Shown here piece by piece: positions 7,836 through 31,244 of a stretch of DNA of 32,000 nt. Under the pieces are notes generated by a model. That model worked only from the letters and a program-made list of their open reading frames with translations. It was not told the DNA's origin and searched no databases. The position numbers were made by a program, and so were the translations under genes. Numbering within the stretch: position 1 is the stretch's first letter; each line of letters starts with the position of its first letter. Source of the stretch: Geotalea uraniireducens Rf4. GTDB taxonomy: Bacteria > Desulfobacterota > Desulfuromonadia > Geobacterales > Geobacteraceae. Location of the stretch: assembly GCF_000016745.1 (NCBI RefSeq), contig NC_009483.1:1110001-1142000 (forward strand), read 5' to 3'.

Positions 7836-8828
7836 TTATTTATAGAGCCCCGCCATCTCCGTCACGATTCCCTTTACCTCTTCCCGCAGATCCTCCGGTT
7901 CCAGCACCTCGGCGTAGCGTCCATAGGAAAGAATCCAGGAAATAATCTCCATCCTCCCCCCTGCGGTAAAGGAGAGGAGCGCGCTTCCGTCCCGTTCCCG
8001 CCGTATCTTCTGGGTCGGGTGCCAGAGCCGGTCGCCGACCGCATGGGCTATCTGCGGGGAGAATCTGACCTTGACCGTCATGGCCTTCTCTTCCACTATG
8101 CCGAAGGCGCTCTTCAGTTGCTCCTCTGGCCGGAATTCCTCCGGCATTTCAAACCGTTCCTTTTCCACCCTCACCTGGCTGATCCGCTCCACGGCAAAGG
8201 TGCGGAGCGCCTTGCGGTTATGGGCGTAGCCGAGCAGGTAGAGCCCACCCTTGTAGAAGATCAGCGTGTAGGGATCGACCTTGTATTCGGCGGTTCTTCT
8301 TTTGCCCGGAGGGCGATAGCCCAGGGTCAGCCGGTACTGGTAGAGGAGGGCGTCGCGCATCAGCTTCAATGGCTCCGCAACCTTGCCATAGTCCCGTCCC
8401 CCCTGCAAAAGCGGCAGGGACACCCTGGCGATCCGCTCCATGTGGGCGGCGTAGCGGGGAGGAAGAACCGAATTCACCTTGTGGAAGATCGCTTCCATGT
8501 CCTCCCGGAAGGGGGTTCCCTTGAGGATGTCGAGCTGGGAGCGGAGAAAGGAGAGGGTCATCAGTTCCTGGAGGGTGAAGTTGATCGGGGGGATATCCTT
8601 GAAACGGGTGAGGAAGCGGTAGGCCTTGCTCCCGTTCAGCCATTCGGAGACCAGCGGATAGCCGGCCTCCAGGATGGCATTCAGGTCGCGGTGGATGGTG
8701 CGGCGGTTGACGCCGGTTTCCTCGGCCAGTTCTTCGATGGTGATGCCGTGGCGGGCTTCGATGAGGCGGATGGTGTCATGGACCCGCCCAGCCTGGGAAT
8801 ATTTTTTGGCCGGTTTTCCCTTCTGCAT
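7836..8828 (-). CDS. HTH + WYL domain transcriptional regulator
   Basis: There is an N-terminal wHTH (ITIEELAEETGVNRRTIHRDLNAILEAGYPL). The central WYL-type segment is YKVDPYTLIFYKGGLYLLGYAHNRKALRTFAVERI. A C-terminal WCX-like region follows. Confidence 0.85.
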   Translation of the reverse strand: MQKGKPAKKYSQAGRVHDTIRLIEARHGITIEELAEETGVNRRTIHRDLNAILEAGYPLVSEWLNGSKAYRFLTRFKDIPPINFTLQELMTLSFLRSQLDILKGTPFREDMEAIFHKVNSVLPPRYAAHMERIARVSLPLLQGGRDYGKVAEPLKLMRDALLYQYRLTLGYRPPGKRRTAEYKVDPYTLIFYKGGLYLLGYAHNRKALRTFAVERISQVRVEKERFEMPEEFRPEEQLKSAFGIVEEKAMTVKVRFSPQIAHAVGDRLWHPTQKIRRERDGSALLSFTAGGRMEIISWILSYGRYAEVLEPEDLREEVKGIVTEMAGLYK

Positions 8829-8830
8829 GG

Positions 8831-10186
8831 CTACTGGGGCTGTCCTTCACCGGCCGGCTTTTTCTTTTGCGGCCGGCGGCGGCGCTTCTTCTCGCCTGCC
8901 TCACCCTCGCCGGCGGGTTTCTCGGCGCTCTTTTCAGCAGGCTTCTCAGTATGTTTTCCCGCTGGTTTGCCATGTCTTGGAGCGGGAGCCCTGCCGTGGG
9001 GTTTCGCTGCGGGTTTCGGCCTCGGCTTGCTCCGTATGTAATCGTGGACAAACAGCTCATCCTCGGCCCACTCCACCGGAATCCTCTCCTTGATGTACTC
9101 GTGGATGTCCTCCAGGTACAGCGCCCCATCCTCGTCGGCCAGGGAGATGGCTTTCCCTTCGGCCCCGGCCCGGGCGGTGCGGCCGATGCGGTGCACGTAG
9201 TCCTCCGCGTCCTGGGGGAGGTCGTAGTTGATGACGTGGGAGACCCCATCGATATGGAGGCCGCGGGAGGCGACGTCGGTGGCGATCATGATGGGCAGTT
9301 TACCGCTCTTGAAGTCTTCCAGGATGCGGAGGCGTTTCCTCTGCTCCACGTCGCCTGAGATGACCCGCGCCGGGAAGTCGTTGACATTGAGCCGGTCAAA
9401 GAGGAATTCCGCTTCCCGCTTGGTGTTGACGAAGATCATGGTCCGCTCCATCCCCTCCTTGCGCAGGAGCCCCAACAGAAGCGGGAACTTCTCCTTGCGC
9501 GACACGTGGTAGATGACCTGCTCGACCCGCTCGGCGGTCATCTGCTCCGGGGTGACGGCGACCTTTTCCGGCACGTTCATGAACTCGTAGGCCAGCTCCA
9601 TGACCCGCTGGTTGAGGGTGGCGGAGAACATCAGGTTCTGGCGCTCATCGAATGGGGGGAGGCGGCGCAGGATGAAGCGCAGGTCGGCGATGAACCCCAT
9701 GTCGAACATCCGGTCCGCCTCGTCGATAACGAGCGCCTCGATGTTCTTCAGGGAGTAGACCTTCTGCTTCAGGTAGTCGATGAGCCGGCCCGGGGTGCCG
9801 ATGACGATGTCCACCCCCTCCTTGAGGGCGTTCTTCTGCTTCATGTAGTCCACGCCGCCGTAAATGGCCTGGATGGTGAAGCCGGTATGTTTACCCAGCT
9901 GCTGGGCGTCCTTCTCGATCTGCACCACCAGCTCCCGGGTGGGGGCGAGGATCAGCGCCCGCGGGTGATGTTCGGTGCCGACTTTTTCCTGTTTCAGGAG
10001 GCGGGTGAAGAGGGAGATGAGAAATGCGGCGGTCTTGCCCGTGCCGGTCTGGGCTTGGCCTGCCACGTCCTTGCCCGCCAGGGCCGGCGGCAGGGCCTTT
10101 TCCTGGATGGGTGTGCATTCGGTGAAGCCGGTGTAGGCGATGCCCTGGAGCACCTGTTCCGGCAGATTTAAATCGGTGAATTTCAT
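8831..10186 (-). CDS. DEAD-box ATP-dependent RNA helicase (RhlE/CsdA-like) with a basic low-complexity C-terminal tail
   Basis: Motifs present are the Q motif (FTECTPIQ), AQTGTGKT, PTRELV, VIDEADRM, SAT and HRIGRTARAG. The tail is KPAAKPHGRAPAPRHGKPAGKHTEKPAEK...KKRRRRPQKKK. The preferred start is ATG at 10186 (MKFTDLNL) after aaagga; the track start is 10195. Confidence 0.92.
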   Translation of the reverse strand: MKFTDLNLPEQVLQGIAYTGFTECTPIQEKALPPALAGKDVAGQAQTGTGKTAAFLISLFTRLLKQEKVGTEHHPRALILAPTRELVVQIEKDAQQLGKHTGFTIQAIYGGVDYMKQKNALKEGVDIVIGTPGRLIDYLKQKVYSLKNIEALVIDEADRMFDMGFIADLRFILRRLPPFDERQNLMFSATLNQRVMELAYEFMNVPEKVAVTPEQMTAERVEQVIYHVSRKEKFPLLLGLLRKEGMERTMIFVNTKREAEFLFDRLNVNDFPARVISGDVEQRKRLRILEDFKSGKLPIMIATDVASRGLHIDGVSHVINYDLPQDAEDYVHRIGRTARAGAEGKAISLADEDGALYLEDIHEYIKERIPVEWAEDELFVHDYIRSKPRPKPAAKPHGRAPAPRHGKPAGKHTEKPAEKSAEKPAGEGEAGEKKRRRRPQKKKPAGEGQPQ

Positions 10187-10223
10187 TTGTAACATCCTTT
10201 TATTACATTATTTCAACAGGATA

Positions 10224-13524: not shown

Positions 13525-14490
13525 ATGGCACGAAAACCCCGCATACACACGCCTGGTGCAATTTACCACGTAATCGTTCGTGGCAATGCACGTCAGGATA
13601 TTTTCTCAGATGATAAGGACCGGTATCGCTTCTATGAGATTCTCCAGAAATCGTGCGAGCGATTCCAGCACCGAATTCACGCCTTTTGCCTGATGACAAA
13701 CCATGTACATCTGGAGATTCAGGTGAGCGATATACCCTTATCAAGAATCATGCAGAACGTGTCTCTGAGGTACACGCAGTGGTTCAACTGGCGGCACAAA
13801 AAGTCGGGTCACGTTTTCCAGGGCAGATATAAGGCTGTTATGGTAGATGCCGACGCTTACCTTCTGGAACTGGCATCCTACATTCACCTCAATCCAGTGC
13901 GGGCGCGGATCGCGGGCCAGCCGGAAAATTACCGGTGGAGCAGTCACCAGGCATATCTTGGCAAGGAGAGCCTTCCATGGCTCGAAACCGATTTCATCCT
14001 TTCCCAGTTCTCCACCAATGTAACGGATGCTCGTATAAAGTTTGTGGTATTTGTGGGCGAGAGATTGGCGGAAGGCCGTCGGGAGGAGTTTCATGGGGAG
14101 AAGAACATCGACAGCCGCATCTTTGGAGATGACCATTTCGTCGATGGCGTGCTTGCAGAGGTGGAATCTCTGCCGGAACAAAAACCTGACGTGAATGCCG
14201 TAGTTGGAGCCGTGAAGAGGCTTTATGATATCCGCGATGATCGTCTCAGTGCGCAGGGTCGAGACCGGGTCACTTCCGAAGCTAGAGGCCTTGCGGCGTG
14301 GGCGACGCTAGAGCTTAGCAGTGGGAAGCTGACGGAGTTAGCGAGGCACGTGGGACGAGACCCCTCGACGTTAACATGTGCCCTGCGACGAATTGAGAAA
14401 CTGCGGGAAAAAGATCCCCTGCTTGTTGATAAAATGGAACGGCTACGGCGTGATTTGCTGGAGTCAAGTTATCAAGTCCTGACCCCATAG
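13525..14490 (+). CDS. REP-associated tyrosine transposase (RAYT, IS200/Y1 HUH family) with a DnaA-C-like HTH C-terminal domain
   Basis: The N-terminus is YHVIVRGNARQDIF...HAFCLMTNHVHLEIQ (HUH motif) ...GHVFQGRYKAV (catalytic Tyr) ...YIHLNPVRA. The C-terminus AAWATLELSSGKLTELARHVGRDPSTLTCALRRIEKLREKDPLL resembles the DnaA domain IV / Bac_DnaA_C helix-turn-helix. Confidence 0.85.
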   Translation: MARKPRIHTPGAIYHVIVRGNARQDIFSDDKDRYRFYEILQKSCERFQHRIHAFCLMTNHVHLEIQVSDIPLSRIMQNVSLRYTQWFNWRHKKSGHVFQGRYKAVMVDADAYLLELASYIHLNPVRARIAGQPENYRWSSHQAYLGKESLPWLETDFILSQFSTNVTDARIKFVVFVGERLAEGRREEFHGEKNIDSRIFGDDHFVDGVLAEVESLPEQKPDVNAVVGAVKRLYDIRDDRLSAQGRDRVTSEARGLAAWATLELSSGKLTELARHVGRDPSTLTCALRRIEKLREKDPLLVDKMERLRRDLLESSYQVLTP

Positions 14491-14515: not shown

Positions 14516-14727
14516 CTTAGCATGCATGGGTAGCGCTCCCCGTATCTCTATGCCCTCTACAGAAGATTGAATTTGGGGCAACCCGCCGGCCTCGAAACAC
14601 CATAATCGTTACAGCGTCCTCATAGCTTCTTTCAAATCTATTAAAATTTTAATTGACCGTAGCCAATTCTCGGTGGTATCGTCATCGCCGGCAAAACCAA
14701 ATTCCTATCGGTAAGGAGAAAATAAAG

Positions 14728-17700
14728 ATGGCAGAAGAAAACCACAAAAGACACTCCTTGTTTTCTATTGTGCAAAACCAAACAAGAGAAACAACTCAGG
14801 AGAGCTACAAGCGTGTTGGCGCCTGGTTTTTGGGGTCATGCGGCGAAAATGCCGATCTGATGGAAAATTTGGTAACCGCCAGTCTTAGCGAGCATGCCAA
14901 TTTTCGTAAAACCTACTTTAACGATCCGCCTTATATCGATACGGATATAAAATCTTCGCAGGAGTACAAAACAGCCTGCAATAACCTCGAAATCGCCCGC
15001 AAAGAGTTATCCCAAAAACTGCATGACAGCGTGCCTTTTTTTAGCGAACGCTACCAGGCACACATGAATTGGGATACCGTTTTACCGGCCAATGTCGGCT
15101 ATATTACCGCCATGATGTACAACCAAAATAATGTTGCCACCGAAGGCGGTCCCCAAACTTGTGCACTGGAAAAAGAGGTTGGTGAGCAGCTGTGCAGCTT
15201 GATGGGATTTGCCAAAGAGTTCGTGGTGAATACCAACGATAATCCAATTAAGGTTAATCCTTGGGGGCATATCACAGCTGACGGCACAATTGCTAATCTG
15301 GAATCCATGTGGGTAGCACGAAATTTGAAATTCTACCCTTTGGCTGTGAAAGAGGCTCTGTTTTGCTACAGGAAGAACGAGCTTGCCGAAGCCTATAATA
15401 AACTTACAGTTACCGTTTATGAAGCGGAAGATAACCCGACGATGATGGTACGTAAAACTAAACTCCTGGTTAATTGTACTACTTGGCAGCTGCTTAATCT
15501 GTTGCCTGATGAAGTTTCCTGTCTGGCTGAAAATATTATTCACTATTGTCCACAATATAAAGAAACCGGTATTGATAAATTTCTGACCCCGTTTTTAATC
15601 CAAAACAAGGGACTGATGTACTACACACAAACGTACCCTGAGATAAAAAGCATGAGAGTCTTCGTACCGGCTACCAACCACTATTCATGGCCAAAATCGG
15701 GAACTGTTCTGGGGCTGGGGCAAGATAGCGTTGTGGGTATTCCGGTTGACAATAATTGCCGCATGGATATTAACATTTTAAGAAATCAACTATTGGAATG
15801 CGCCCAAAACAAGATCCCTGTTTTAATGGTTGTCGGTGTAATCGGCAGTACCGAAGAAGGCGTGGTGGATAACCTTGAAGGTATTCTTAAACTGCGTAAA
15901 GAGACAATCAGTGGAAGCTATCAATTTAACGGATTAAATTTCCTTATCCACTGCGATGCAGCTTGGGGCGGCTACCTGCGCACTATGATGGTCAATCCTA
16001 AAACCGATAACGCAGAAGTTGTACAGGCCGAGTTTGTGGCCGATGTACCGCTCTCATCATATGCTCAAAAACAATATGCTCTTTTACAAATGGCTGACAC
16101 GCTGACTGTTGATCCGCACAAGGCAGGTTTTATACCGTACCCGGCCGGTTCGCTTTGTTATCGTAACGGATTCATGCGCTACTTCATTACATTTAACGCC
16201 GCCTACATTCATTCGGATAAAAATCTTAACATGGGTATCTTTGGCCTGGAAGGTTCCAAGCCGGGGGCTGCCGCTGCGGCTGTCTGGATGGCTCATCGTA
16301 CGATTCCATTGGATAACAGCGGCTATGGCTTGATTCTTGGCGAGTGTGCCTTCAGCGCAAAACTTTACTACTGCTACTGGCTGACACTGGCAGGCGACAG
16401 CGATGTTTTCAGAATAGAATCGCTGGTACCGCTGCCGGAAAAAATTACCGGCTATCAAGGTCAAACCTTAGCTACCGGTAAAGCAGACATTATCCGCTAT
16501 ATCAGAAACAACATTATCGGCAAAACCAACGAGCATTTGGCTAAAAATCCGGATCTGATTGCCGTTTTACAACAAATTGGTTCAGATGTGCTGATCAACT
16601 CCTTCGTGGTTAACTTTAAGAACAAAGACGGACGATGGAATACAGATCTTACCAAGCTGAATACGCTTAACAATAATCTGTTAAAGAAATTTTCCATTAC
16701 CACGCCTGAACAAGCCCATGAAAAAAATACACCATTTATCATTACCAGCTCTAATTTAACCAATCAAAACTACAAAGTACCATTGACAAGAATTGGTAAA
16801 GAGCTGGGCATTGCCATACCTGACGAACAGTCCATGACATTTATCATCAACACGATTTTGCATCCCTGGCCAACAACGAACGGCTTTATCAACACGATCA
16901 TGAGCCTGTTTAAACAGGAAGTTTTAAATCAAATCAAAACCCTGCAAACAACAGAAACCCTGCAACAGCTTGTCATGGAAGCCGTCGCAACTGACCGTGT
17001 AACAGCGATTCCAAGCGACGCCACCGCCAGACCTGCCCGCTGGTATAATCTCAATAACTCCTATGCCGGTTATGCTAAAGCCGATAAAAACGGCAACGAG
17101 CTGTTTTACTGGTTCTTTGAAAGCCAGACAAAACCAACCGAACAGACACCACTGGTACTTTGGCTTAATGGTGGACCGGGTGCATCCTCTTTAGCCGGTC
17201 TGTTTTTAGAAAACGGACCATTTGCCATGGGAAGTGATGGTATGCTTACACCAAACAGTTACAGCTGGAATACCAAAACCCATCTTATCTACTGGGATCA
17301 GCCTGCAGGCACCGGTTTCAGCACAAAAAAACCAAACACCTACGTTACAACCGAAGCGGAACTGGCCAAACAGTTTGTCAATGCCCTGCAGGATTTCTAT
17401 GCCAAACATCCTGAATACCGCAACAATCCACTCTATCTGACAGGGGAAAGTTATGCCGGTAAATATTTGCCGTACATTGCCACAGAGATCACAACACGCA
17501 ACAAAACAGGCAATGAGCTTAAGATTCACCTGCATGGCATAGCCATTGGTGACGGCTGGATGTACCCGGAAAAACAAACTCTTGATCAGATTGAGTATGC
17601 TTATATGCTTGGTTTGGTCGATGCCAATCAAAAAAGGCTTGCTCTAGAACAATTTGAGCAGTTCTCCGTGGATTTGAAAAAAGGGGATATGAAACAGGCA

Positions 17701-18309
17701 TTCACGGATGGAACAAAAGTAAGTTCCACTTTAACTGCCTGCGGCGGCGGTGAAAATATCTATGATGTCCGTAGTTGGTCGGATGCTTCATTGCAACCAT
17801 TGCGCAACTACCTGGGCAGCCCTTTGGTGAAACAGGCTATTCATGTGCCGCAAGAGGTTGTCTGGAGTTTTGAAGATGCTGCGGGACCGGTTTCCGATAA
17901 CCTGATTAACGACATGATGGCCTCGGTTACTGCGGTTATTCCCCCTTTGGTTGACATACAAAGCAACGGGAAGCCTGTCTACCAACTGCTCTTTTATACC
18001 GGCAACTTTGATATGTCCTGCGGTTTTTCCGGCACCGAACAGATTTTAAGAAACATGAATTGGTCAGGCAAAGAAAGCTGGGCCAAGTTGAAGCGCCAGG
18101 TTTGGTATACAACCGACAGCAACAATAAGAGAGTTACCCAAGGCTGCATTAAAAGACTTGCCAATCTGATGCAAATAGAGGTGCCGATGTCCGGCCATCA
18201 AGTACCATTGTATCAGCCAAAGATCTCCCAAGACATGCTGCATGCCTGGATATTTAATGAAGCGTTTAAGACCTATGATCCGTTATCTGAACAGGCAAAA
18301 GCTAAATAA
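14728..18309 (+). CDS. fusion protein: N-terminal group II PLP-dependent (tyrosine-decarboxylase-like) decarboxylase + C-terminal S10 family serine carboxypeptidase
   Basis: N-terminal part: GHITADGTIANLESMWVARNLKFYP, VPATNHYSWPKSG, LIHCDAAWGGY and TVDPHKAGFIPYPAGSLCYRN (PLP-Lys, nt 16111-16122). C-terminal part: LWLNGGPGASSLAGLFLENGPF (nt 17161-), YLTGESYAGKYLPYIA (nucleophile Ser, nt 17444-17461), and GHQVPLYQP (catalytic His, nt 18193-18207). ATG at 14728 follows aaggag. A single uninterrupted frame, about 42-45% GC by eye. Confidence 0.8.
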   Translation: MAEENHKRHSLFSIVQNQTRETTQESYKRVGAWFLGSCGENADLMENLVTASLSEHANFRKTYFNDPPYIDTDIKSSQEYKTACNNLEIARKELSQKLHDSVPFFSERYQAHMNWDTVLPANVGYITAMMYNQNNVATEGGPQTCALEKEVGEQLCSLMGFAKEFVVNTNDNPIKVNPWGHITADGTIANLESMWVARNLKFYPLAVKEALFCYRKNELAEAYNKLTVTVYEAEDNPTMMVRKTKLLVNCTTWQLLNLLPDEVSCLAENIIHYCPQYKETGIDKFLTPFLIQNKGLMYYTQTYPEIKSMRVFVPATNHYSWPKSGTVLGLGQDSVVGIPVDNNCRMDINILRNQLLECAQNKIPVLMVVGVIGSTEEGVVDNLEGILKLRKETISGSYQFNGLNFLIHCDAAWGGYLRTMMVNPKTDNAEVVQAEFVADVPLSSYAQKQYALLQMADTLTVDPHKAGFIPYPAGSLCYRNGFMRYFITFNAAYIHSDKNLNMGIFGLEGSKPGAAAAAVWMAHRTIPLDNSGYGLILGECAFSAKLYYCYWLTLAGDSDVFRIESLVPLPEKITGYQGQTLATGKADIIRYIRNNIIGKTNEHLAKNPDLIAVLQQIGSDVLINSFVVNFKNKDGRWNTDLTKLNTLNNNLLKKFSITTPEQAHEKNTPFIITSSNLTNQNYKVPLTRIGKELGIAIPDEQSMTFIINTILHPWPTTNGFINTIMSLFKQEVLNQIKTLQTTETLQQLVMEAVATDRVTAIPSDATARPARWYNLNNSYAGYAKADKNGNELFYWFFESQTKPTEQTPLVLWLNGGPGASSLAGLFLENGPFAMGSDGMLTPNSYSWNTKTHLIYWDQPAGTGFSTKKPNTYVTTEAELAKQFVNALQDFYAKHPEYRNNPLYLTGESYAGKYLPYIATEITTRNKTGNELKIHLHGIAIGDGWMYPEKQTLDQIEYAYMLGLVDANQKRLALEQFEQFSVDLKKGDMKQAFTDGTKVSSTLTACGGGENIYDVRSWSDASLQPLRNYLGSPLVKQAIHVPQEVVWSFEDAAGPVSDNLINDMMASVTAVIPPLVDIQSNGKPVYQLLFYTGNFDMSCGFSGTEQILRNMNWSGKESWAKLKRQVWYTTDSNNKRVTQGCIKRLANLMQIEVPMSGHQVPLYQPKISQDMLHAWIFNEAFKTYDPLSEQAKAK

Positions 18310-21915: not shown

Positions 21916-24876
21916 TCAGGCAGGGAAGTTTCGCGTCAGGTGGAGCCGGAGCGTGTCCTCGAAGGCCGCTTCCTGGTCTCCCCGGTATACGAGGGAGGAT
22001 GCGATCTCGGCGGCGAGAATGGCGAAGAGGTATTTCTGCGGCAGCTTGCCGATCCGCCGCCGGTAGCGTGTCTCTTCGCGGAGGATGCGCGGGAGGTGGG
22101 AGAGGATGGCCCGGCGGAAGATGGGTTGCAGGCAGAGTTCCGGGCGTCCCTGGAAGAATTTGAAGATGCGGGCGTAGAGGCCGTTGATCTCGCTGCTCAG
22201 CGCATCGGAGATCTCGGTGCAGAGGAGCATCGGCTGCTCTCGGCGGCGCCTGAGGATCAACTGCGCCTCGTCGCCGGCCCGTTTCTCCAGGATTTCGAGG
22301 ACGTCGGCCACGTAGCGTTCCTTCTCGGCCAGGAACTCTTGTTCGCTCAGGAGCAGGTTGGCGATGATCTCGTAGGAGGAGGAGATTACGCCGCACTTGT
22401 TGGCCGAGGCGTCGCGCATGATGATGACCCCATTTTTCTGGAGCTGGACGCGGGCCTCGGGGGTGATGAATGAGTTGGCCCCCTCGACGATGGCCTGCGC
22501 AGACGGGGTGCCGTCCGCCAGCAGGAATTCCTGCCAGTTCTCCTTGTCGATGGTCTCCGGGCGGCCTCCGGCGGGGATGAAGAGGTCCGCCTGCACGGTG
22601 AAGGGGAGCTCGTCGAACTCCCGGTAGAATTCGTCGATGGATATCCACTCCTCATGCAGGCCGGCCGGGGTCATGCTCACTTTGCGGTAGAGCTCCCTGA
22701 GCCCTTCTTTGCGGCTGCCGGTGCGGAAGAGCATGAAGCCGCCGGGGTGAAGGGCATGGGGGTCGAAGGCCTCCAGGTCTTCCTTGAGTATGATCCGTTT
22801 CAGCTCCGTCCGGTCGGCTCCCGATCCGTCGCAGAGGGCGGCGGTGCCGTCGAGGATGAGGCGGATCGCCATCTGCGGGCAGCGGTCGAGCATGATCCGC
22901 ATGGCGTTTCCAGCCACGTCGCCGTTGGGGCCTCCGGTGAACTTTACGGAGAACGGGTCCTTGCGGATGTCGATGCCCAGCTCCGCCATGGTGATTTCGG
23001 CGAACTTCACCACCCCGGTGGAGGTGACCCCGTACTCCTTGTGGTTGATCCCCACCTTTTTACTGGAGATGATGCCGATGCCGAGCAGGTACTCCCGCTT
23101 TTGCGACAGCCGGGCGATGGTCTCGATCATCGAGTCGTGCATGTTCTCGTCGGGCCCCAGTTCGATCGGCTCGTCTTCCCGGTAGTAGTCCAGCACCCGC
23201 GGGTCCCTGGCGACCCCGTTTTCGGTGACGAAGATGTCGAGGAAGGCGTTGATGATCCCGAACTGGAGCTTGTAGAGCCGCCACGTCTCCATTTCCCGCT
23301 CCCGGGCTCTCAGGTCCGAGACATCGAGGATCACCACCAGCTTCGACCCCCCCTCGTAGATATCCTTGTTTTTCAGATGCTGGGTGTGGGCCAGGACGAA
23401 GTTCTCGCGGAAGATGGTGCCGGCGTTGGTCAGATAGTCGTCGTTGGTGCGGGCGATGACGGTCCGCCAGCCGCCCCGGGCGATGTCGGAGAAGCCGATG
23501 TGATAGCCGAAGCCGAAGCGGCTGAAGAAGAAGGTGACCCGGAACGGCACGGCCTGCGGCAGGTCGGAGGTTGCCTCGGGGCCGAGCTTCGCCAGGTAGG
23601 CGGGGTCGAGGCGGAAGGCGAGGGCCTGCTTTTCCAGGACGAAGAAGTTGGTCTTCAGGGTATGGGTGATGAAGATGAGGCAGCAGCGGAAGATGGAGCG
23701 CCGCACCTCATCCAGGTAGCGGTGGCCGGTGTTGTACTCCTCGACGGCCTGCTCCGTTTCCGCGAGGACCGACCGGTATGCTTCGTCCCGGACGCCCCTG
23801 GCCGGATCGAAGCGCACCCTGAAGAGCTGTGCCAGTTGGAGGGCTATCTCCGGGTGGGAGAGGAAGGCGCTCCTGACTTCCGCCGAATCGAAGCGGTCCG
23901 GCTGGGTATGGGCCAGGTTCGTATGGCAGAAGGCGATGAAGGCGTTGATCAGCGAGGCCTCCTCGCCGCTCATAACCCCGTTCATGACGAAGTTGCGGAA
24001 GGCCTCCGATCTGGTGGGCAGGATCTGGGTGTTGTAAAGCTCCTGCTGGAGCCGGCTGAAGATCCCGTCCCCCTGCGCCAGCACCCCTCCGTCGCGCCGC
24101 TGCACGTAGAAGGTGCCGAGGAAGTAGGGATGGATGCCGTTGGAGATGGTGAGGCAGTAGGCGCGGTTCACCCCGAGGGAGAGACGGTTGAAGACCTCCA
24201 TGATCTGGAAGAGGAAATCCTGCTGGGGTGGGTTCCCCACGGCGAACAGGACCCGCCATTCGTTGCCGCTCGCCATCTCTTCCACACCCAGATAGAGCCC
24301 ACCCCCTTGATTGCTCCGCTGGTAGAGTTGCAGTATCTGGGCGACCCGTGCCGGCGCCGAGACCCGCACGTAGTTCGCGTTATTGAGCCAGAGGATGCGG
24401 AGGAGCCGGTCCAGCTCCTTAAGATCGAAAGAGGGGAAGTTTCGCTTCAGCTCGGCGGAAATCCTTCTCCTGATGCCGAGGGGAACCACCACATCCTTGC
24501 CGGCAATGATCTCCTCGTTGCTCTTCCGGTCAAACTCGAAGCGCTGGATCTCCAGGGCCTGCTCCATTCCGGGCATCGGTCCGGCGGAGTGGGCGATCAT
24601 GGCGTAGGATATTTCCCGTTCCTGGACCCGGCGCAGGGTGTCGTAGAGGGTGCCGGGGCGGTTGACGAAGGCCTGGATGTAGCTCTTTTCCCGGTCGGCA
24701 AGGATAAGCCGGCGGTTGTCGCGCAGGGTCGCCAGTTCCCGTTCGAGGATGGAGACGGCCTTCGGCTCGTCCTTCATGGAAATGAAAAAGTAGGGGTTCA
24801 TCCATTCCCGGAGCCAGCGGCGATTTTCCGCCCGCTCCGCGTTTCGCGTTCTACTGCCCGATTTGGCACTGTCCAT
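21916..24876 (-). CDS. gdh: large NAD-specific glutamate dehydrogenase (~1000-aa, about 115 kDa class)
   Basis: IARGGWRTV...LAHTQHLKNKDIYEGGSKLVV parallels the GGLRW...KNAVIVPVGAKGG substrate/Lys region of large GDHs. KFTGGPNGDVAGNAMRIM parallels the GDMSGDVFGNGML dinucleotide motif. EGANSFITPEAR...ASANKCGVISSSYEI is also present. A 986-aa uninterrupted frame with RBS gaggag. Confidence 0.8.
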   Translation of the reverse strand: MDSAKSGSRTRNAERAENRRWLREWMNPYFFISMKDEPKAVSILERELATLRDNRRLILADREKSYIQAFVNRPGTLYDTLRRVQEREISYAMIAHSAGPMPGMEQALEIQRFEFDRKSNEEIIAGKDVVVPLGIRRRISAELKRNFPSFDLKELDRLLRILWLNNANYVRVSAPARVAQILQLYQRSNQGGGLYLGVEEMASGNEWRVLFAVGNPPQQDFLFQIMEVFNRLSLGVNRAYCLTISNGIHPYFLGTFYVQRRDGGVLAQGDGIFSRLQQELYNTQILPTRSEAFRNFVMNGVMSGEEASLINAFIAFCHTNLAHTQPDRFDSAEVRSAFLSHPEIALQLAQLFRVRFDPARGVRDEAYRSVLAETEQAVEEYNTGHRYLDEVRRSIFRCCLIFITHTLKTNFFVLEKQALAFRLDPAYLAKLGPEATSDLPQAVPFRVTFFFSRFGFGYHIGFSDIARGGWRTVIARTNDDYLTNAGTIFRENFVLAHTQHLKNKDIYEGGSKLVVILDVSDLRAREREMETWRLYKLQFGIINAFLDIFVTENGVARDPRVLDYYREDEPIELGPDENMHDSMIETIARLSQKREYLLGIGIISSKKVGINHKEYGVTSTGVVKFAEITMAELGIDIRKDPFSVKFTGGPNGDVAGNAMRIMLDRCPQMAIRLILDGTAALCDGSGADRTELKRIILKEDLEAFDPHALHPGGFMLFRTGSRKEGLRELYRKVSMTPAGLHEEWISIDEFYREFDELPFTVQADLFIPAGGRPETIDKENWQEFLLADGTPSAQAIVEGANSFITPEARVQLQKNGVIIMRDASANKCGVISSSYEIIANLLLSEQEFLAEKERYVADVLEILEKRAGDEAQLILRRRREQPMLLCTEISDALSSEINGLYARIFKFFQGRPELCLQPIFRRAILSHLPRILREETRYRRRIGKLPQKYLFAILAAEIASSLVYRGDQEAAFEDTLRLHLTRNFPA

Positions 24877-26867: not shown

Positions 26868-27157
26868 GCGGCACCTCCATTATTGGTGTAGTTTAATTAT
26901 ATCACAATCATTGATAGTGCAAGCTGAGCGGGCATATGTGACAACGCTTGATTGATTGCGACTATCGATCGGCTATTGCAACTTATCGCTTGTTCCGGCA
27001 ATCGTTTTTCGTGATTGAAACATTTTGTGGAACTTAGAGGGCCTAAAAATATTTCTAAAGAATCTGTAACTAAATCCGAATAATGTTTGCATGAACCGTA
27101 TCCTTGTCCGGTTCTTTTCTAAAATATGCGGAATCTTTTGTACCGGGGTGGCAATGG

Positions 27158-27202
27158 TGCCTGTCCCTGCCATGCATAATGGCAGGGACAGGCATTTTTT
27201 GT
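27158..27202 (+). terminator. orphan rho-independent terminator in the lipoprotein/MCP intergenic region
   Basis: tgcctgtccctgccat gcat aatggcagggacaggca is a 16-bp perfect stem followed by ttttttgttt. No annotated + strand gene lies upstream of it. Confidence 0.7.
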
Positions 27203-27270
27203 TTCACGTCAAAATCCGGCCTTGGCTGTTTAATAAATATTGAGGCATTTACAATGGTGTGGAGGAAAAA

Positions 27271-29271
27271 ATGAAAAGTATATTTGTTCCTGCAATTGTC
27301 TTAATGAATCGATGTACATTTTTCCAGAAAATTGCCGTGGTTACGGGCATTTTTCTCTTACCGGTTATGTTGCTTGCATATTTTCTCGTAACAGATGCGC
27401 ATGAATTGATCGAGTTTGCCGCCAAGGAGCGTTTAGGAGTTGAATACAGCGTTCCAGTAAGACGCCTGCTCCAGGATGCTCAGGGAATGCGTGACTCTTC
27501 TGTAATCACTGGCGATGTTTCCGCAGAGGAAGCTAAATTGGCCTCTGATTTTCAAAACATGGAAAAAGTTGAGGAGCGGCTCTCTGGCGATCTGAACACC
27601 AAGGATGCATTAACTAAGCTCAAAAACACTGCAAATTCCATTAAAAGCACGCAGGGAAAGGCATTCGGAAAAATATACGCTGCCCATACTGTTTTTATCA
27701 GCGAACTTCTGAGTATGCTGACGCTTGTTGCAGATAATTCCAATCTTACCCTTGATCCCGATATCGACAGCTATTACCTGATGGACTCCATTGCAACAAA
27801 GCTTCCCGGTCTTGCCGAGGCGGTTTCCCGGGAATCGGTCCTCGTAAGGGAAGTGCTTGCCCGCAAAGCCATGACACCGGAGGAAAAAACGGAACTGACG
27901 GTTGTCTCGGGTCAGATAACGGCTTTGTTGGATGGGCTCAGGCAAAATATGAGCAAAGCCTTTGGAGCGAATGCCGATCTTCGGCGAAAATTGGAAAAGA
28001 ATTTTCAGTCTATTGAAAACGAAGTGGCCGCGTATGCTGAGACAATAAACCGCGATTTACTGGGGGGAAAAGAGAATCTGACGGATCCAGCCGGCTTTGC
28101 TGCGGCGGCAAAACGGGCAGCAGGAGCTGTTTACCAAGGCTATGACATTATTGTGCCTGAGCTGGACCATCTTCTCAACAAGCGCATAAACAAGCTGCAT
28201 AGTCACACGAACCGAAAAGTGATGGTCAGCTTTATGGCTGTTTTGCTGGGAATGTATCTTTTCCTCGGATTCTATCGATCTGTTCGGGACAATATACACG
28301 AGCTGCATCTTGCGGCACAGCAAGTGGCTGAGGGCAACCTCAACATGAAGTTGGCGATACCTTCCCGGGATGAAATCGGTGCAGTTTCCAGAAGCTTCAA
28401 CGCTATGGTGGGTGACCTGGGAGATATTGTGGGGAAGGTGTCGATTACGGCGACCCAGGTTGCAACTGCTGCAAGCCAGCTGACATCAACTGCGGACAAA
28501 ATTGCCATGGACTCGGAAAATGTTGCAATCCAGGCTACAGCAGTTGCGACTGCAAGCGAGCAGATGTTGGAGACCAGTACAGACATTGCCAGGAGTTGCT
28601 GCGATGCTGCCGGCAATTCTCAGCATAGCAACCGGATTGCCACGTCAGGAGTGGCGGTTTTGAAGGAAACCTTGACTGTGATGGAAGGAATTGCCTCACG
28701 GGTCAAGCTCTCGGCAACTTCGATAGGGGCGCTGGAAGCCAGGTCAAACAGCATCGGCGAGATAGTCAGCACTATCGAGGATATTGCCGATCAGACCAAC
28801 CTTTTGGCCTTGAACGCCGCCATTGAAGCAGCCAGAGCCGGCGAGCAGGGGAGAGGCTTCGCTGTCGTCGCAGACGAGGTCAGGGCCTTGGCGGAACGAA
28901 CTACCGTAGCCACCCGGCAGATCAGTGAAATGATCGGGTCTATTCAGAAGGAAACCCGCTCTGCTGTTGAGTTTATGGACAGCGGCGTGCAAGAGGTCGG
29001 CAACGGTATGGAAAAGGCGGCAGAATCAGAAGAAGCGTTAAAACAAATCTTCGAGCAAATAGATAGCGTGTCAACCCAGATCAGTCAGATAGCAGGCGCT
29101 GCGGAAGAGCAAACCGCCACGACCAATGTGATCTCAAAAAGCATCCAGGAAATGAATGCCATTTCGTACGAAACCGCCGGCGGTGCAAAAGAAAGCGCGG
29201 CAGCAGCTTCACAATTGTCAGATTTGTCCTGCGAACTGAAAAGTCTTGTCATGCGTTTCAGGCTTGCATGA
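27271..29271 (+). CDS. mcp: methyl-accepting chemotaxis protein (periplasmic sensor, HAMP, MA domain)
   Basis: Two TM segments ([22 protein letters not shown]; [18 protein letters not shown]). HAMP region ([28 protein letters not shown]). Highly conserved hairpin tip [45 protein letters not shown] at 27271 follows ggagg. Confidence 0.93.
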
Positions 29272-29297
29272 TATGTGTCGGCGATATCTGATAATCT

Positions 29298-29328
29298 AGT
29301 TTCCATCCGGAAACTCCGGATGGAAACT
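29298..29328 (+). terminator. perfect hairpin after the MCP gene (terminator or protein-binding palindrome; no T-tract)
   Basis: agtttccatccgga aac tccggatggaaact is a 14-bp perfect stem, 27 nt past the MCP stop. Confidence 0.45.
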
Positions 29329-29442
29329 AATCTAGCATTTCATCCCTGAAGCATCGTTCCGGTAATTGTCGCGTTGACATCACCATACGATGTGGTAATT
29401 TTAAATATTAGGCGTGACCAATAAATTCGGGGGTGAGAGAAA

Positions 29443-29793
29443 ATGCGGATGCTTGCAACGGGCTTACTGTCAATGGCGGTCATGGGGCTTCTTTGTTCGT
29501 CTGTCGGTGCAGCGGGTATGGTGGAAAAAGGTAAAGCCCTCTTCAACGATCCTAAGTTTGCTGAAGGCACCTCCGGCAAATCTTGCAATTCGTGCCACCC
29601 TGACGGAAAAGGATTGGAAAAGGCCGGACTGAGAGGGCGGAAGGAGTGGAAGAATCCGGGTGGAACCTGGCTCTCCCTGCAAGACGCAAATAATGTCTGC
29701 ATCATATTGGCTAACAAGGGGAAAGCAATCGATCCCAAATCAGCCGAAATGAAGGATCTGGTGGCGTACATCAAGTCACTGGCGAAAAAGTGA
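29443..29793 (+). CDS. small monohaem c-type cytochrome, secreted
   Basis: Signal peptide MRMLATGLLSMAVMGLLCSSVGAAG and a single CxxCH haem-binding site (CNSCH). The N-terminal KGKALFNDPKF context is class-I like. Confidence 0.8.
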   Translation: MRMLATGLLSMAVMGLLCSSVGAAGMVEKGKALFNDPKFAEGTSGKSCNSCHPDGKGLEKAGLRGRKEWKNPGGTWLSLQDANNVCIILANKGKAIDPKSAEMKDLVAYIKSLAKK

Positions 29794-29841
29794 TTGGTTT
29801 TCATCCGGAAACACCGGGTGAGGACCTATTTAGTTTCTGAA

Positions 29842-29870
29842 GGGAGAGCCGAACAGTCTCTCCCCTTTTT
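29842..29870 (+). terminator. intrinsic terminator after the cytochrome c gene
   Basis: gggagag ccgaacagt ctctccc followed by cttttt. Confidence 0.65.
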
Positions 29871-29960
29871 GATTGTCGATCGGAAGGTGTCTTTCGAGCT
29901 CGACACAGTTGCCCGCTCTGAAAACAGCCCATATCGTAACTGTTACAACTAGGGGGCACT

Positions 29961-31244
29961 TTGCCGCAACGAGTTTTCGAGACAATTAGAACAGGCCTTG
30001 AAGCCTTCTGGGGGGGCGCCACCGCCGATATTTTCAGACACGATGAAATATCCAGGGCGGATACCAAAGGCAGGCATACATTTGCGAAGAAAATCAAGAC
30101 AGATGTGGGGGATTACGTATTTGTACTGAAAAGAGGCGATCTCCCATTCTCCGAAACCGAAAAAAAGTTCGGTGAGGAGTTGGCCGGAGCATTTCAGGTC
30201 CTCTTCAACGGGTTCAAAAAGGACGAATACGCAGCGCATTATCGAACAGCCCTCCTTGCCTCCCTCATGGACGTAACCATAGCTCAATACCTGCGCCATG
30301 AACATCGTCGGGCTTTCTGGTCCATCCAGAGGCTGATCCAGCTTTTGAAAAACCTCTCTTATCAACGTTACGAGGGTACTCCCGTCACAACGGGCTTCAT
30401 CATATATCGGCATCAGTTGCAAAAATTTCGGGCAGCATGTAACTCTCTGGATTGCACCTGGAAAGATTTCAAGCCAAATGTGAGCATTTCCCCGGGGTTT
30501 TTCAAAAGTCCGTTGACCTATCGCCTTATCGATGGTCTGGGAACGTATTTCATGAGCAATATCAACATGCGGGTAACAGGAATGGTTAAATTCGGTAATT
30601 ACGGACAACATGATGCCGTTGACCGGCTCACCAATCGCGATACCTTTTCCCTGTTGAAAAAGGCCGGCAGCGGAGCATTTGCAGTCGATATTAACATCAG
30701 TTCCGAATTGGAGATCAAGACCTGTCCCGACAAGATATTTATCTGGCGGAAAGGGAGCTGGAGTCTATTCGATCCGAATGTATTCAGAAGCTTTCTTGCA
30801 GGGCATCTGGATGCAAAAGAAGCGGAATTGTTGATACTGACTGTATATTCCCTTTCAAAGATTCGTCACGGAACCATTGTGCTCATTTGCGACACGGAGA
30901 CACAGGATCTGGACAAACTCAAAAAAGGTTCTGTGGGAGGCAACGATTCCCTCAGCCGACTGCTTATCGATCAGGTGAAAGATCTGAAAATCAGCAGATT
31001 GAAGGAGTCCGGGCAGTTGATAAGGATTCTGTCTTCTGACGGTATGACCGTGTTCAACAATAACGGCGAACTGGTTGACACGGGATTTATTATCGACACA
31101 TCGAAAACCCCCGATCTGGTTGCGGGGGGAGGACGGACTACTGCGGCAAGCGCTGCGTCGTTGTGCGGCAAGGTGATAAAGGTATCGGAGGACGGCCCCA
31201 TAGAGCTGTACGAAAAAGGGAGAGTGATCTATACCTTTGGCTGA
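29961..31244 (+). CDS. hypothetical protein with a C-terminal DisA_N/diadenylate-cyclase-like domain (non-canonical motifs) and an uncharacterised N-terminal ~280-aa domain
   Basis: The C-terminal ~140 aa are SKIRHGTIVLI...LSSDGMTVFNNNGELVDTGFIIDTS...AGGGRTTAASAASLCGKVIKVSEDGPIELYEKG. They line up with the DAC pattern GALIVI...DGAVII...G..L...GTRHRAA.GISE..D...IVVSEETG.IS. DGA is replaced by DGM and RHR by GRT. The start is TTG at 29961 after aggggg (uncertain). GC is lower than in the neighbouring genes. Confidence 0.5.
   Translation: MPQRVFETIRTGLEAFWGGATADIFRHDEISRADTKGRHTFAKKIKTDVGDYVFVLKRGDLPFSETEKKFGEELAGAFQVLFNGFKKDEYAAHYRTALLASLMDVTIAQYLRHEHRRAFWSIQRLIQLLKNLSYQRYEGTPVTTGFIIYRHQLQKFRAACNSLDCTWKDFKPNVSISPGFFKSPLTYRLIDGLGTYFMSNINMRVTGMVKFGNYGQHDAVDRLTNRDTFSLLKKAGSGAFAVDINISSELEIKTCPDKIFIWRKGSWSLFDPNVFRSFLAGHLDAKEAELLILTVYSLSKIRHGTIVLICDTETQDLDKLKKGSVGGNDSLSRLLIDQVKDLKISRLKESGQLIRILSSDGMTVFNNNGELVDTGFIIDTSKTPDLVAGGGRTTAASAASLCGKVIKVSEDGPIELYEKGRVIYTFG

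Follow-up and report, generated by a model that had tools for sequence, protein, structure and literature searches.

Residues 286–427 of a 427-aa protein from Geotalea uraniireducens, encoded in the 32,000-nt stretch of DNA analysed here (i.e. the window), form a true but divergent DAC-fold domain, and the probable role of the protein is to make, or alternatively to sense, a nucleotide signal. DAC enzymes were for long believed to make c-di-AMP alone, from a site with DGA and RHR motifs. The chances are about even that this protein is a regulated, divergent cyclic-nucleotide synthase, soluble and cytoplasmic, of an uncharacterised clade of the DAC superfamily; its catalysis, product and regulation are what we infer from the evidence below.

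The + strand open reading frame is a genuine gene. It was present as described in the earlier note on this DNA (427 aa, TTG start), and the four blocks singled out there (i.e. HGTIVLI, SSDGMTVF, GGGRTTAASAAS and VIKVSEDGPIELYEKG) were all found in the translation. The gene and its upstream elements are as follows.

29961..31244, + strand: the frame that encodes the 427-aa DAC-like protein, from a TTG start to a stop codon at 31242-31244 (ORF list and homologs).
29952..29956, + strand: GGGGG, Shine-Dalgarno-like, 4 nt 5' of the TTG (read from the sequence).
29796..29870, + strand: two tandem hairpins 3' of the cytochrome c stop codon (terminator scan; RNA fold -34.9 kcal/mol, z = -3.1).

Use of the TTG start, as previously proposed, is favoured by an ATG at the exact aligned site in 28 of 29 orthologs and by the upstream GGGGG, which is also found in identical form in loci L005, L002 and L014. 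Expression of a minus-strand frame (29949..30611), or of nothing, in place of the + strand frame has a negligible probability. The antisense frame exists and spans 220 aa, but the + strand product has a constant length (423–427 aa) with identities of 48–92% over hundreds of homologs and folds confidently in an AlphaFold2 model. Antisense stop-free stretches vary erratically among orthologs, from 90 to 436 aa, and the antisense frame was rejected as a real gene on this ground; the possibility raised earlier that the + strand frame is not the gene was thus not borne out. The maximum 19-residue Kyte-Doolittle hydropathy of the protein was 1.33, indicating that it has no transmembrane segment.

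The neighbouring genes encode a DUF4136 protein, an MCP (HAMP and MCPsignal domains), a small cytochrome c and, in convergent orientation, CheD, and domain matches agreed with the earlier placement of the MCP and cytochrome c ahead of the gene and of cheD converging on it. In the terminator scan a U-run (29866-29870) comes after the second of the two hairpins (29842-29864), and together these elements likely form an intrinsic terminator between the MCP/cytochrome c unit and the gene. In the G. uraniireducens lineage the gene is predicted to be a stand-alone (i.e. monocistronic) transcription unit. A consensus scan returned no sigma-70 promoter upstream of the gene, and no riboswitch or known RNA was found near it. 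The GC content of the gene (0.484) is lower than those of the MCP (0.498), cytochrome c (0.516) and CheD (0.529) genes and of the whole window (0.528), as had been remarked, but the dip is small and 'visibly' lower was an overstatement. Horizontal transfer was rejected as a reading of the GC content because the difference is too small.

A survey of neighbourhood conservation showed that the MCP/cytochrome c linkage is not conserved. Both genes were absent from the locus of an 89%-identical ortholog (L005), from L002 and L006 and from all other Geotalea-clade loci. The convergent cheD, an orphan outside any che operon, was kept in just five or six Geotalea-clade loci, and no che genes were found near the family gene in ~70 other loci. 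The local synteny DUF4136 / gene / CheD is kept across the Geotalea clade. The suggested link to a chemotactic or redox input is therefore not supported, given the missing MCP and cytochrome c genes at ortholog loci, the two intervening hairpins and the convergent and limited occurrence of CheD; judged from gene order, the chemotaxis genes appear to be accidental neighbours.

The protein was divided into three parts plus a linking pair of helices, with the following coordinates.

29961..30242, + strand: residues 1-94, a variable alpha/beta cap (model secondary structure; identity profile).
30243..30359, + strand: residues 95-133, two long helices that connect cap and middle domain (H95-112 and H118-133 in the model).
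30360..30815, + strand: residues 134-285, a middle alpha/beta domain, conserved but of no recognised fold (conservation; Pfam and PDB negatives).
30816..31241, + strand: residues 286-427, a DAC (DisA_N)-fold domain (sub-threshold Pfam match, Foldseek, superfamily profile and relatives passing Pfam).

The DAC likeness of the C-terminal ~140 aa, claimed earlier from motif order and spacing, was upheld by several lines of evidence. Residues 295–421 aligned from end to end with the Pfam DAC profile (PF02457; profile positions 4–118 of 119, E 0.016); the score, at 15.3 bits, fails the gathering cut-off of 27 bits. Weak sub-threshold matches were also obtained for 18 of 34 close homologs (best E 3.7e-4). 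Four distant superfamily members (P0253, P0258, P0263 and P0249) exceed the cut-off with 30–36 bits, and the family profile retrieves them with E values between 1e-17 and 1e-20, so that homology of the 427-aa protein to DAC holds transitively. An AlphaFold2 model (pLDDT 83, pTM 0.86) was compared with the PDB using Foldseek, and the five best matches were all DAC structures (6gyx, 3c1y, 8ofj, 7y0d and 9g69), led by DacA 6gyx (E 6e-5, TM 0.61 normalised to the target) and including DisA 3c1y with an rmsd of 2.9 A over 136 columns; the lack of any DAC-fold match, against which the earlier note had set its reading, was not what was observed. The superfamily profile also matched the CdaA-type DAC chain 2fb5 (E 0.0086), in an alignment that keeps the motifs in register. 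Conservation along the protein is highest in the second half of the DAC domain.

Three motifs in this domain were located by profile alignment and by conservation in 52 superfamily representatives, each standing for one cluster at 50% identity or above.

31038..31046, + strand: D360-G361-M362, the DGA counterpart.
31125..31142, + strand: G389-G390-G391-R392-T393-T394, the counterpart of G-T-R-H-R.
31185..31199, + strand: S409-E410-D411-G412-P413, the counterpart of S-E-E-(T)-G.

Among the 52 representatives D360 and G361 were invariant, and the third position was occupied by L (28), M (14) or A (6). G390 was likewise invariant, R392 was present in 51 and T or S at position 393 in 50, and the second-Arg position (394) was variable. 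S400 was found in 51, and S409, D411 and G412 in all. Read strictly, neither the DGA nor the RHR motif is present: the former reads DGM and the latter R392-T393-T394, with only the first Arg retained, and the His before DG is replaced by Ser. The profile alignment to solved DACs places GGRTTAA opposite GTRHRAA. The change from DGA to DGM had thus been recognised correctly, but the 'GRT' assigned earlier to RHR is one residue out of register. S409 and D411 align with the Ser and second Glu of SEE, in a low-scoring profile alignment rather than a superposition; the Glu of canonical SEE with which D411 is aligned is taken to be metal-binding. The clade signature is DG[L/M]...GG-R-T-x-AA...K-V-S-x-D-G-P as compared to DGA...G-T-R-H-R...S-E-E-T-G. 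The minimal DAC core of D-G...G-x-R, with a Ser eight residues past the Arg, is present as D360, G361, G390, R392 and S400. Across ~1,200 DACs, D, G, G and R are the sole fully conserved residues (D68, G69, G103 and R105 in EcPanS), and in DisA D75 is a metal ligand and R108 a ribose contact (10.64898/2026.08.10.743972). The conservation of these residues points to a site that is remodelled and not decayed.

This is a real, widely conserved and unstudied gene of the Geobacter group. A homolog search retrieved 519 homologs of 423–427 aa, with hundreds of full-length homologs in Geobacterales/Desulfuromonadales; at least 174 species genomes/loci of Geobacterales carry a gene of the family, often with two or three paralogs per genome. 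The wider superfamily comprises ~1,086 representative clusters, and most members are annotated as 'hypothetical'; a Desulfatiglandales member (HUV59751.1) is named 'diadenylate cyclase' by NCBI and a Pelotalea relative 'DAC domain-containing protein' in UniRef. No usable literature was found on c-di-AMP in Geobacter.

The N-terminal 285 aa occur exclusively with this DAC clade, in a fixed three-part architecture. Residues 1–94 are the least conserved, their mean identity to the 427-aa protein being 39% within the close family and 16% over the superfamily, and are a candidate input or regulatory region; over the helix pair, members of the close family average 70% identity. The middle domain contains the superfamily-invariant residues E138 and W267 and the motifs YEG..TG and YR.VDG. 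The earlier statement that the N-terminal ~280 aa match nothing recognised held throughout: Pfam, NCBIfam and PADLOC gave no match, the Foldseek comparison with the PDB gave PAS/LOV/RhlR-like noise only (best E 0.5) and no DAC structure, and the family and superfamily profiles found nothing for this part among PDB sequences. Scanning of the 52 superfamily members with Pfam at E up to 10 yielded scattered single matches only, with none to DACNG or DACNH and, overall, none of the Pfam N-terminal DAC-associated domains matched. A single DACNK match (E 0.16) was at chance level and was not recovered among ten re-scanned members; its appearance indicates that the searched library contains DACN* models. 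A survey by Galperin (J Bacteriol 2023) reportedly lists 22 DAC families with named regulatory-domain architectures. The middle domain was also considered as a second, degenerate DAC (i.e. DACNH-like), a candidate rejected because hhalign of residues 95–285 or 134–285 against 286–427 gave probabilities of <1%; this rejection of an internal duplication holds at the sensitivity of the hhalign and fold searches used.

Known DAC systems share the fold and parts of the site. Enzymes of the CdaA/DacA type (S. aureus DacA 6gyx, B. cereus 2fb5) have the alpha/beta DAC fold in common with residues 286–427, and the order and register of Asp-Gly, Gly-x-Arg, the Ser past the Arg helix and Ser-x-acid-Gly are the same; their DGA, the Thr before RHR and RHR itself become DGM, Gly and RTT in the 427-aa protein. 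CdaA possesses three transmembrane helices at its N-terminus and a cdaR/glmM operon, neither of which was found here, where the DAC domain instead lies C-terminal to a soluble 285-aa module. In DisA (T. maritima 3c1y, M. smegmatis 7y0d) the fold is again common and both D75 (metal) and R108 (ribose) have conserved counterparts, whereas T107 and T111, which contact adenine, are replaced by Gly and Ala in the 427-aa protein. The domain order is also reversed, as the DAC domain of DisA is N-terminal and followed by a linker and an HhH DNA-binding domain that is absent here. A likeness in motifs is seen with PanS, the minimal DAC of Panoptoo/PanDA: both have a bulky hydrophobic residue after Asp-Gly (DGF in PanS, DGM/DGL here) and Gly-Gly-Arg in place of Gly-Thr-Arg. 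PanS is active, with cUA or c-di-AMP as product, and its DGF and GGR motifs are needed for activity (10.64898/2026.08.10.743927). It can make cUMP-AMP (10.64898/2026.08.10.743927; 10.64898/2026.08.10.743972). Catalysis can therefore survive motif changes of this kind, and these may make the choice of base less strict.

On the reading of the protein as a divergent synthase, D360-G361 would bind metal and ribose, G390-G391-R392 would supply Gly-x-Arg, S400 and S409 would contact phosphate, and D411 would occupy the second metal-ligand position. Two DAC domains would meet head to head, as in other DACs, and join two NTPs as a cyclic dinucleotide. This may be c-di-AMP or possibly a different or mixed dinucleotide, since the Thr-to-Gly change at an adenine-contacting position is also seen in PanS. 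The N-terminal 285 residues would gate oligomerisation or activity in response to some input signal.

The main rival, a possibility that we consider appreciable but lesser, is a pseudoenzyme or receptor in which the DAC fold binds a nucleotide (c-di-AMP, c-di-GMP, cGAMP or ATP) without cyclase activity and the N-terminal module relays the signal by protein-protein contacts. Several observations speak against a synthase and fit such a receptor. Thr-Thr stands in place of the His and the second Arg of RHR, Ser precedes DG instead of His, and neither the 427-aa protein nor any of its close homologs reaches the Pfam DAC threshold. Replacement of RHR by AAA abolishes ATP binding and activity in M. 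tuberculosis DacA, although that mutant also loses the first Arg, which is retained in the 427-aa protein. The conserved site would also suit a dedicated nucleotide-binding receptor, as a specific ligand pocket would be conserved just as strongly. Against this, the invariant residues are the catalytic and metal-binding ones of DACs, i.e. D360 (equivalent to DisA D75), R392 (R108) and D411, and a receptor has scant use for both acidic metal ligands, the role of D411 being presumed as above. We know of no receptor family on the DAC fold. The invariant catalytic core and the activity of PanS with its DGF/GGR site move the weight towards an active enzyme and away from a dead receptor; the earlier choice between a divergent cyclase and a nucleotide-binding module thus named the right alternatives, of which the catalytically dead one is now less favoured.

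Gene order in a paralogous clade bears on both readings. In clade A2 (53–60% identity, L028 included), eight of nine loci have a REC-HATPase gene upstream and a REC-GGDEF gene downstream on the same strand, with gaps of -34 to +183 nt, and the three genes are predicted to be co-transcribed as REC-histidine kinase / X / REC-GGDEF diguanylate cyclase operons. This arrangement places the family in second-messenger networks. A position between a kinase and a diguanylate cyclase is also a sensible one for an adaptor or receptor, which might contact the A2 REC-kinase or REC-GGDEF proteins. No effector, phosphodiesterase or riboswitch was found near the gene as a conserved product-reading partner. 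A small downstream partner was considered and rejected, the 116–128-aa frames in L004, L085 and L087 being mutually unrelated. Rhomboid and nitrogenase-like genes recur beside the gene in a 424-aa clade; their orientation varies between loci, so this recurrence was taken as synteny and rejected as an operon.

Other chemistry on the DAC scaffold, such as that of a nucleotidyltransferase, an ATPase/ADPase or a linear-dinucleotide synthase, is improbable, and equally so is the notion that the middle domain (E138, W267 and D191-G192) adds a second substrate site. The consistent Thr/Ser in place of His and the variable second-Arg position would fit such a change, the invariant middle-domain residues hint at a second functional site, and M. 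tuberculosis DacA has a side ATPase/ADPase activity. The literature covered, however, gives no precedent for a non-cyclase main activity of the DAC fold, the middle domain has no match among known catalytic folds, and this is the least parsimonious option.

The synthase reading can be extended, in a speculative form that we hold to be rather unlikely, to a clade with the DG[L/M]...GG-R-T...S-x-D-G signature of separate, ancient DAC-fold synthases of a messenger other than c-di-AMP (e.g. a mixed or pyrimidine-containing cyclic dinucleotide, as for PanS), equipped with a new sensor module and wired in Geobacterales to two-component and c-di-GMP signalling via the REC-kinase / X / REC-GGDEF operons. 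Electroactive bacteria already use c-di-GMP and cGAMP, and this extension, if true, would add an unseen second-messenger pathway. Remodelled DAC sites do make other dinucleotides (10.64898/2026.08.10.743927; 10.64898/2026.08.10.743972). The large clade of the 427-aa protein has a distinct, strictly conserved remodelling (RHR to R-T-x) with an N-terminal module found nowhere else. If active, the protein would extend what DACs are known to catalyse and where they are known to occur, and would provide an extra messenger-producing node in Geobacter signalling, in one clade beside c-di-GMP enzymes; an inactive protein would be the first receptor with a DAC fold.

A horizontally acquired part in anti-phage or mobile-element nucleotide signalling, comparable to PanS/PanDA or CdaG (DS-2C), is very improbable. 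The PanS-like motifs (DG plus hydrophobic, GGR), the defence-like or mobile contexts of some distant members (P0249 and P0140) and a GC content slightly under the window mean are in its favour. Both the PADLOC and the viral fold library searches were empty, however, with no structural relatives in the latter, and the assignment to a defence system was rejected on these grounds. There is neither an adjacent effector nor a conserved partner, the GC gap of ~4 points is shared by the MCP gene, and conservation is vertical, with the Geotalea-clade synteny and the wide presence within one order described above. The layout differs as well. PanS has ~150 aa, no regulatory domain, an HDGFH motif, a 2TM-beta effector in its operon and a location in defence islands; the 427-aa protein has a large N-terminal module, a Ser before Asp-Gly, no effector partner and no PADLOC match. 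CdaG (DACNG + DACNH + DAC) is likewise soluble and multi-domain, with large N-terminal domains presumed to be sensory, but is longer (~550–575 aa), CBASS-associated and has a canonical DisA_N; its DACNG and DACNH gave no match in the 52 superfamily members at E up to 10. The DACNH domain is reportedly distantly DAC-like, unlike the middle domain of the 427-aa protein, which has no detectable DAC similarity.

Superfamily members of the DGA type (HUV59751.1, P0253, P0258 and P0263) have the same layout as the 427-aa protein, with YE(G)..TG, VDG and the invariant Trp followed by the DAC domain, and the same G-x-R-T-x-AA and S-x-D-G motifs; they differ in having kept DGA and in passing the Pfam DAC threshold. 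Some contain a coiled-coil insertion (about 520–533 aa in total length) and some are in mobile or defence-like contexts. Among the distant members, P0249 adjoins MazE/PIN, Schlafen-AlbA_2, DUF4145 and GIY-YIG genes, and P0140 is surrounded by integrases, IS91 transposases and PemK.

The DAC-like gene, an open reading frame of 427 aa read from a TTG codon (29961..31244, + strand), is a real gene. A Shine-Dalgarno sequence (GGGGG) lies 4 nt 5' of the TTG. An ATG occupies the exactly aligned start position (M-P-x-x-V-F-E...) in 28 of 29 orthologous loci, and TTG was found there only in the window and in L005, the locus of an 89%-identical ortholog. A total of 519 homologs had lengths of 423–427 aa, and relatives were encoded at 174 genome loci, nearly all from Geobacterales/Desulfuromonadales. 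The AlphaFold2 model of the window protein was confident (pLDDT 83, pTM 0.86), and the protein lacked a membrane-spanning hydrophobic segment (19-residue hydropathy maximum of 1.33). A competing antisense frame was rejected as a shadow ORF because its stop-free length varied erratically among orthologs (90–436 aa) whilst the sense length was constant.

The earlier note had assigned a DAC fold to the C-terminus from sequence strings, all of which were present in the translation, and this assignment was borne out by profile and structure comparisons. Firstly, the Pfam DAC model (PF02457) was spanned in full (aa 295-421 versus positions 4-118 of 119) at a score of 15.3 bits, below the cut-off of 27, and the same weak match occurred in 18 of 34 close homologs. 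NCBIfam and PADLOC gave no match for the window protein, and a close-family profile retrieved no DAC from the PDB sequences. Secondly, the C-terminal fold was identified as DAC because the five best PDB structure matches of the model were S. aureus DacA, T. maritima DisA, CdaM, M. smegmatis DisA and CdaA-GlmM. The best of these was S. aureus DacA (6gyx; E 6e-5, target-normalised TM 0.61); T. maritima DisA (3c1y) gave an rmsd of 2.9 A across 136 columns, and beyond these five no PDB structure matched with E < 0.4. Thirdly, an exhaustive profile search yielded a superfamily of 1,086 representative clusters, in which four distant members passed the Pfam DAC threshold (P0253, 36.4; P0263, 33.1; P0258, 31.4; P0249, 30.3 bits) with profile E-values of 1e-17 to 1e-20. 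One Pfam-passing relative bears the NCBI name 'diadenylate cyclase'. As judged from these profile searches, homology of the window protein to DAC holds transitively. When 52 diverse members of the superfamily were combined into one profile, it reached DacA and also 2fb5, a CdaA-type chain (E 0.0086), and the motifs stayed in register.

In the profile alignment, GGRTTAA of the window protein was paired with GTRHRAA, and KVSED-GP with IVSEETGD. The counterpart of RHR is therefore R392-T393-T394 and that of DGA is D360-G361-M362; the DGM replacement described previously was correct, but the 'GRT' proposed for RHR was one residue out of register. Conservation was assessed in 52 representatives, each representing one cluster of proteins with ≥50% identity:

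D360, G361, G390, S409, D411, G412: invariant
R392, S400: 51 of 52
Position 393: Thr or Ser in 50 of 52
Position 394: variable
Position 362: Leu in 28, Met in 14, Ala in 6

RHR was found in none of the 52, including those members that keep DGA. Across ~1,200 curated DACs, full conservation is reported for D, G, G and R alone (10.64898/2026.08.10.743972). The same study assigns metal binding to D75 of DisA, ribose contact to R108 and adenine contact to T107/T111. Given the reported D-G/G-x-R core and the observed residue conservation, the window protein keeps the universal DAC core, together with an acidic residue aligned with the second Glu of SEE. Within the whole protein, conservation peaked in the second half of the DAC domain (mean identity of 73% in the close family and 48% in the superfamily). 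The site is thus remodelled and held by purifying selection rather than decayed.

Our best-supported prediction, with about an even chance of being right, is that the DAC-like protein belongs to a distinct DAC clade and makes a nucleotide signal as a soluble, regulated synthase. Two NTPs would be condensed at the D-G/G-x-R/S/S-x-D site, between two DAC domains facing head to head, with the N-terminal module controlling assembly or activity. The loss of the His and Arg of RHR favours a nucleotide-binding pseudoenzyme, a reading that is possible but doubtful; an RHR to AAA change in M. tuberculosis DacA abolishes ATP binding. PanS, the minimal DAC of Panoptoo (PanDA) defence, carries DGF for DGA and GGR for GTR, and is active with cUMP-AMP or c-di-AMP as the product; both motifs are needed for activity (10.64898/2026.08.10.743927). 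The window protein likewise has Gly for Thr beside the Arg and a bulky residue after Asp-Gly. Given these PanS-like changes, the product of the predicted synthase could be c-di-AMP or another dinucleotide; some other chemistry on the DAC scaffold is improbable. An active protein would represent a new synthase class, an inactive one the first DAC-fold receptor.

The model divides the N-terminal 285 residues into three parts:

aa 1-94: alpha/beta cap
aa 95-133: two long helices
aa 134-285: alpha/beta middle domain

Variability was greatest in the cap (superfamily identity of 16%). In the middle domain, E138 and W267 were invariant and Y137, G145 and D191-G192 nearly so. As the earlier note had reported for the N-terminal ~280 aa, no relationship was detected: Pfam gave no consistent match among 52 members at E-values up to 10, the best hit of a PDB fold search had an E-value of 0.5, and the viral fold library gave no match. 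DACNH, an N-terminal domain of CdaG, is described in the literature as a degenerate second DAC domain; a similar origin for the middle domain was rejected at the sensitivity of a profile-profile comparison (probability <1%). A profile of the N-terminal region alone recovered 292 matches, all with the same 423-437-aa architecture; the module thus belongs with this DAC clade and is not a shuffled sensor domain.

A neighbourhood survey of 84 loci and co-occurrence within single MAGs showed that the family has split into three or more paralogous clades in Geobacterales. Three MAGs each carry two members, of the 427-aa and 424-aa types (L005 and L011; L007 and L018; L009 and L026); clades A, A2 and B thus share genomes, which makes them paralogs. 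Clade A (≥65% identity, 6 loci) has opposite-strand neighbours on either side of the DAC-like gene, which is therefore monocistronic. In eight of nine clade A2 loci (53–60% identity), the gene has a REC-HATPase kinase gene upstream and a REC-GGDEF gene downstream, both on its own strand, with intergenic gaps of -34 to +183 nt; additional PAS-kinase and REC-GGDEF-EAL genes often flank this trio. The same-strand cluster (L008-L013, L028 and L083; e.g. L010, 1750..10236) comprises:

REC-PAS-histidine kinase
REC-HATPase kinase
DAC-like gene
REC-GGDEF
REC-GGDEF-EAL

Through these operons the family is connected with two-component and c-di-GMP signalling. A role in defence is very unlikely. No constant neighbour was found for clade B (424 aa, ~66 loci). 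Among the distant members, one from Pontibacter has a plain chromosomal setting. Two others, L085 (a Desulfatiglandales MAG) and L087 (an ENA metagenome contig), have mobile or defence-like surroundings: one adjoins MazE/PIN, Hypoth_Ymh, Schlafen-AlbA_2, DUF4145 and GIY-YIG genes, and the other lies amid repeated integrase/IS91 pairs and a PemK/RHH toxin-antitoxin pair. The DAC fold itself is already known and a few members have been flagged as DAC-domain proteins by automated pipelines. The changes of RHR to R-T-x and DGA to DG[L/M], the exclusive 285-aa module, the size and paralogy of the family in Geobacterales and the kinase/GGDEF operon appear to be undescribed, although the family may overlap one of Galperin's 22 DAC families (2023).

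The gene order in the window is DUF4136 (-), MCP (+), cytochrome c (+), DAC-like gene (+) and CheD (-). CheD is convergent, as originally noted, and the gap is 44 nt. Apart from adjacency in this single genome, nothing supports the chemotactic or redox input proposed from this arrangement: L005 and the Geotalea toluenoxydans and SG265 loci lack both the MCP gene and the cytochrome c gene and have DUF4136 directly upstream of the DAC-like gene. This 2.5 kb block (27259..29793) is bounded on the left by an 18-bp perfect hairpin (27156..27196) and on the right, after the cytochrome c stop codon, by two hairpins (29796..29870; z = -3.1), of which the second runs into a U-run. The block resembles a recent insertion restricted to the window lineage. 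No Rfam element was found near the gene, and the window holds no che operon. CheD is an orphan with unrelated genes after it and is kept only in a small Geotalea clade (five or six loci); the remainder of the window is ordinary housekeeping. The GC content of the DAC-like gene (0.484), previously called visibly lower, is indeed below the window mean (0.53), but only by ~4 points and close to the MCP value. In Geotalea toluenoxydans (L002, 9386..9652, -) and SG265 (L006), an 88-aa ORF without a Pfam match (cluster 12) separates the DAC-like gene from CheD; the window lacks this ORF, and CheD is the next gene there.

Other features of the window were as follows:

7836..10195 (-): HTH-WYL-WCX regulator that follows a same-strand DEAD-box helicase after a gap of 2 nt
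13525..14490 (+): IS200-like Y1 transposase with a DnaA_C-type HTH, directly upstream of the next ORF
14653..18309 (+): 1218-aa ORF with a PLP-dependent decarboxylase region at aa 337-550 and, fused to it, a serine carboxypeptidase S10 domain, complete, at aa 802-1201, a combination unusual in bacteria
21916..24876 (-): large NAD-glutamate dehydrogenase gene with a GC of 0.63 and GC3 of 0.87 (window, 0.53; surrounding genes, 0.48-0.55); Geotalea toluenoxydans has this gene at the equivalent position
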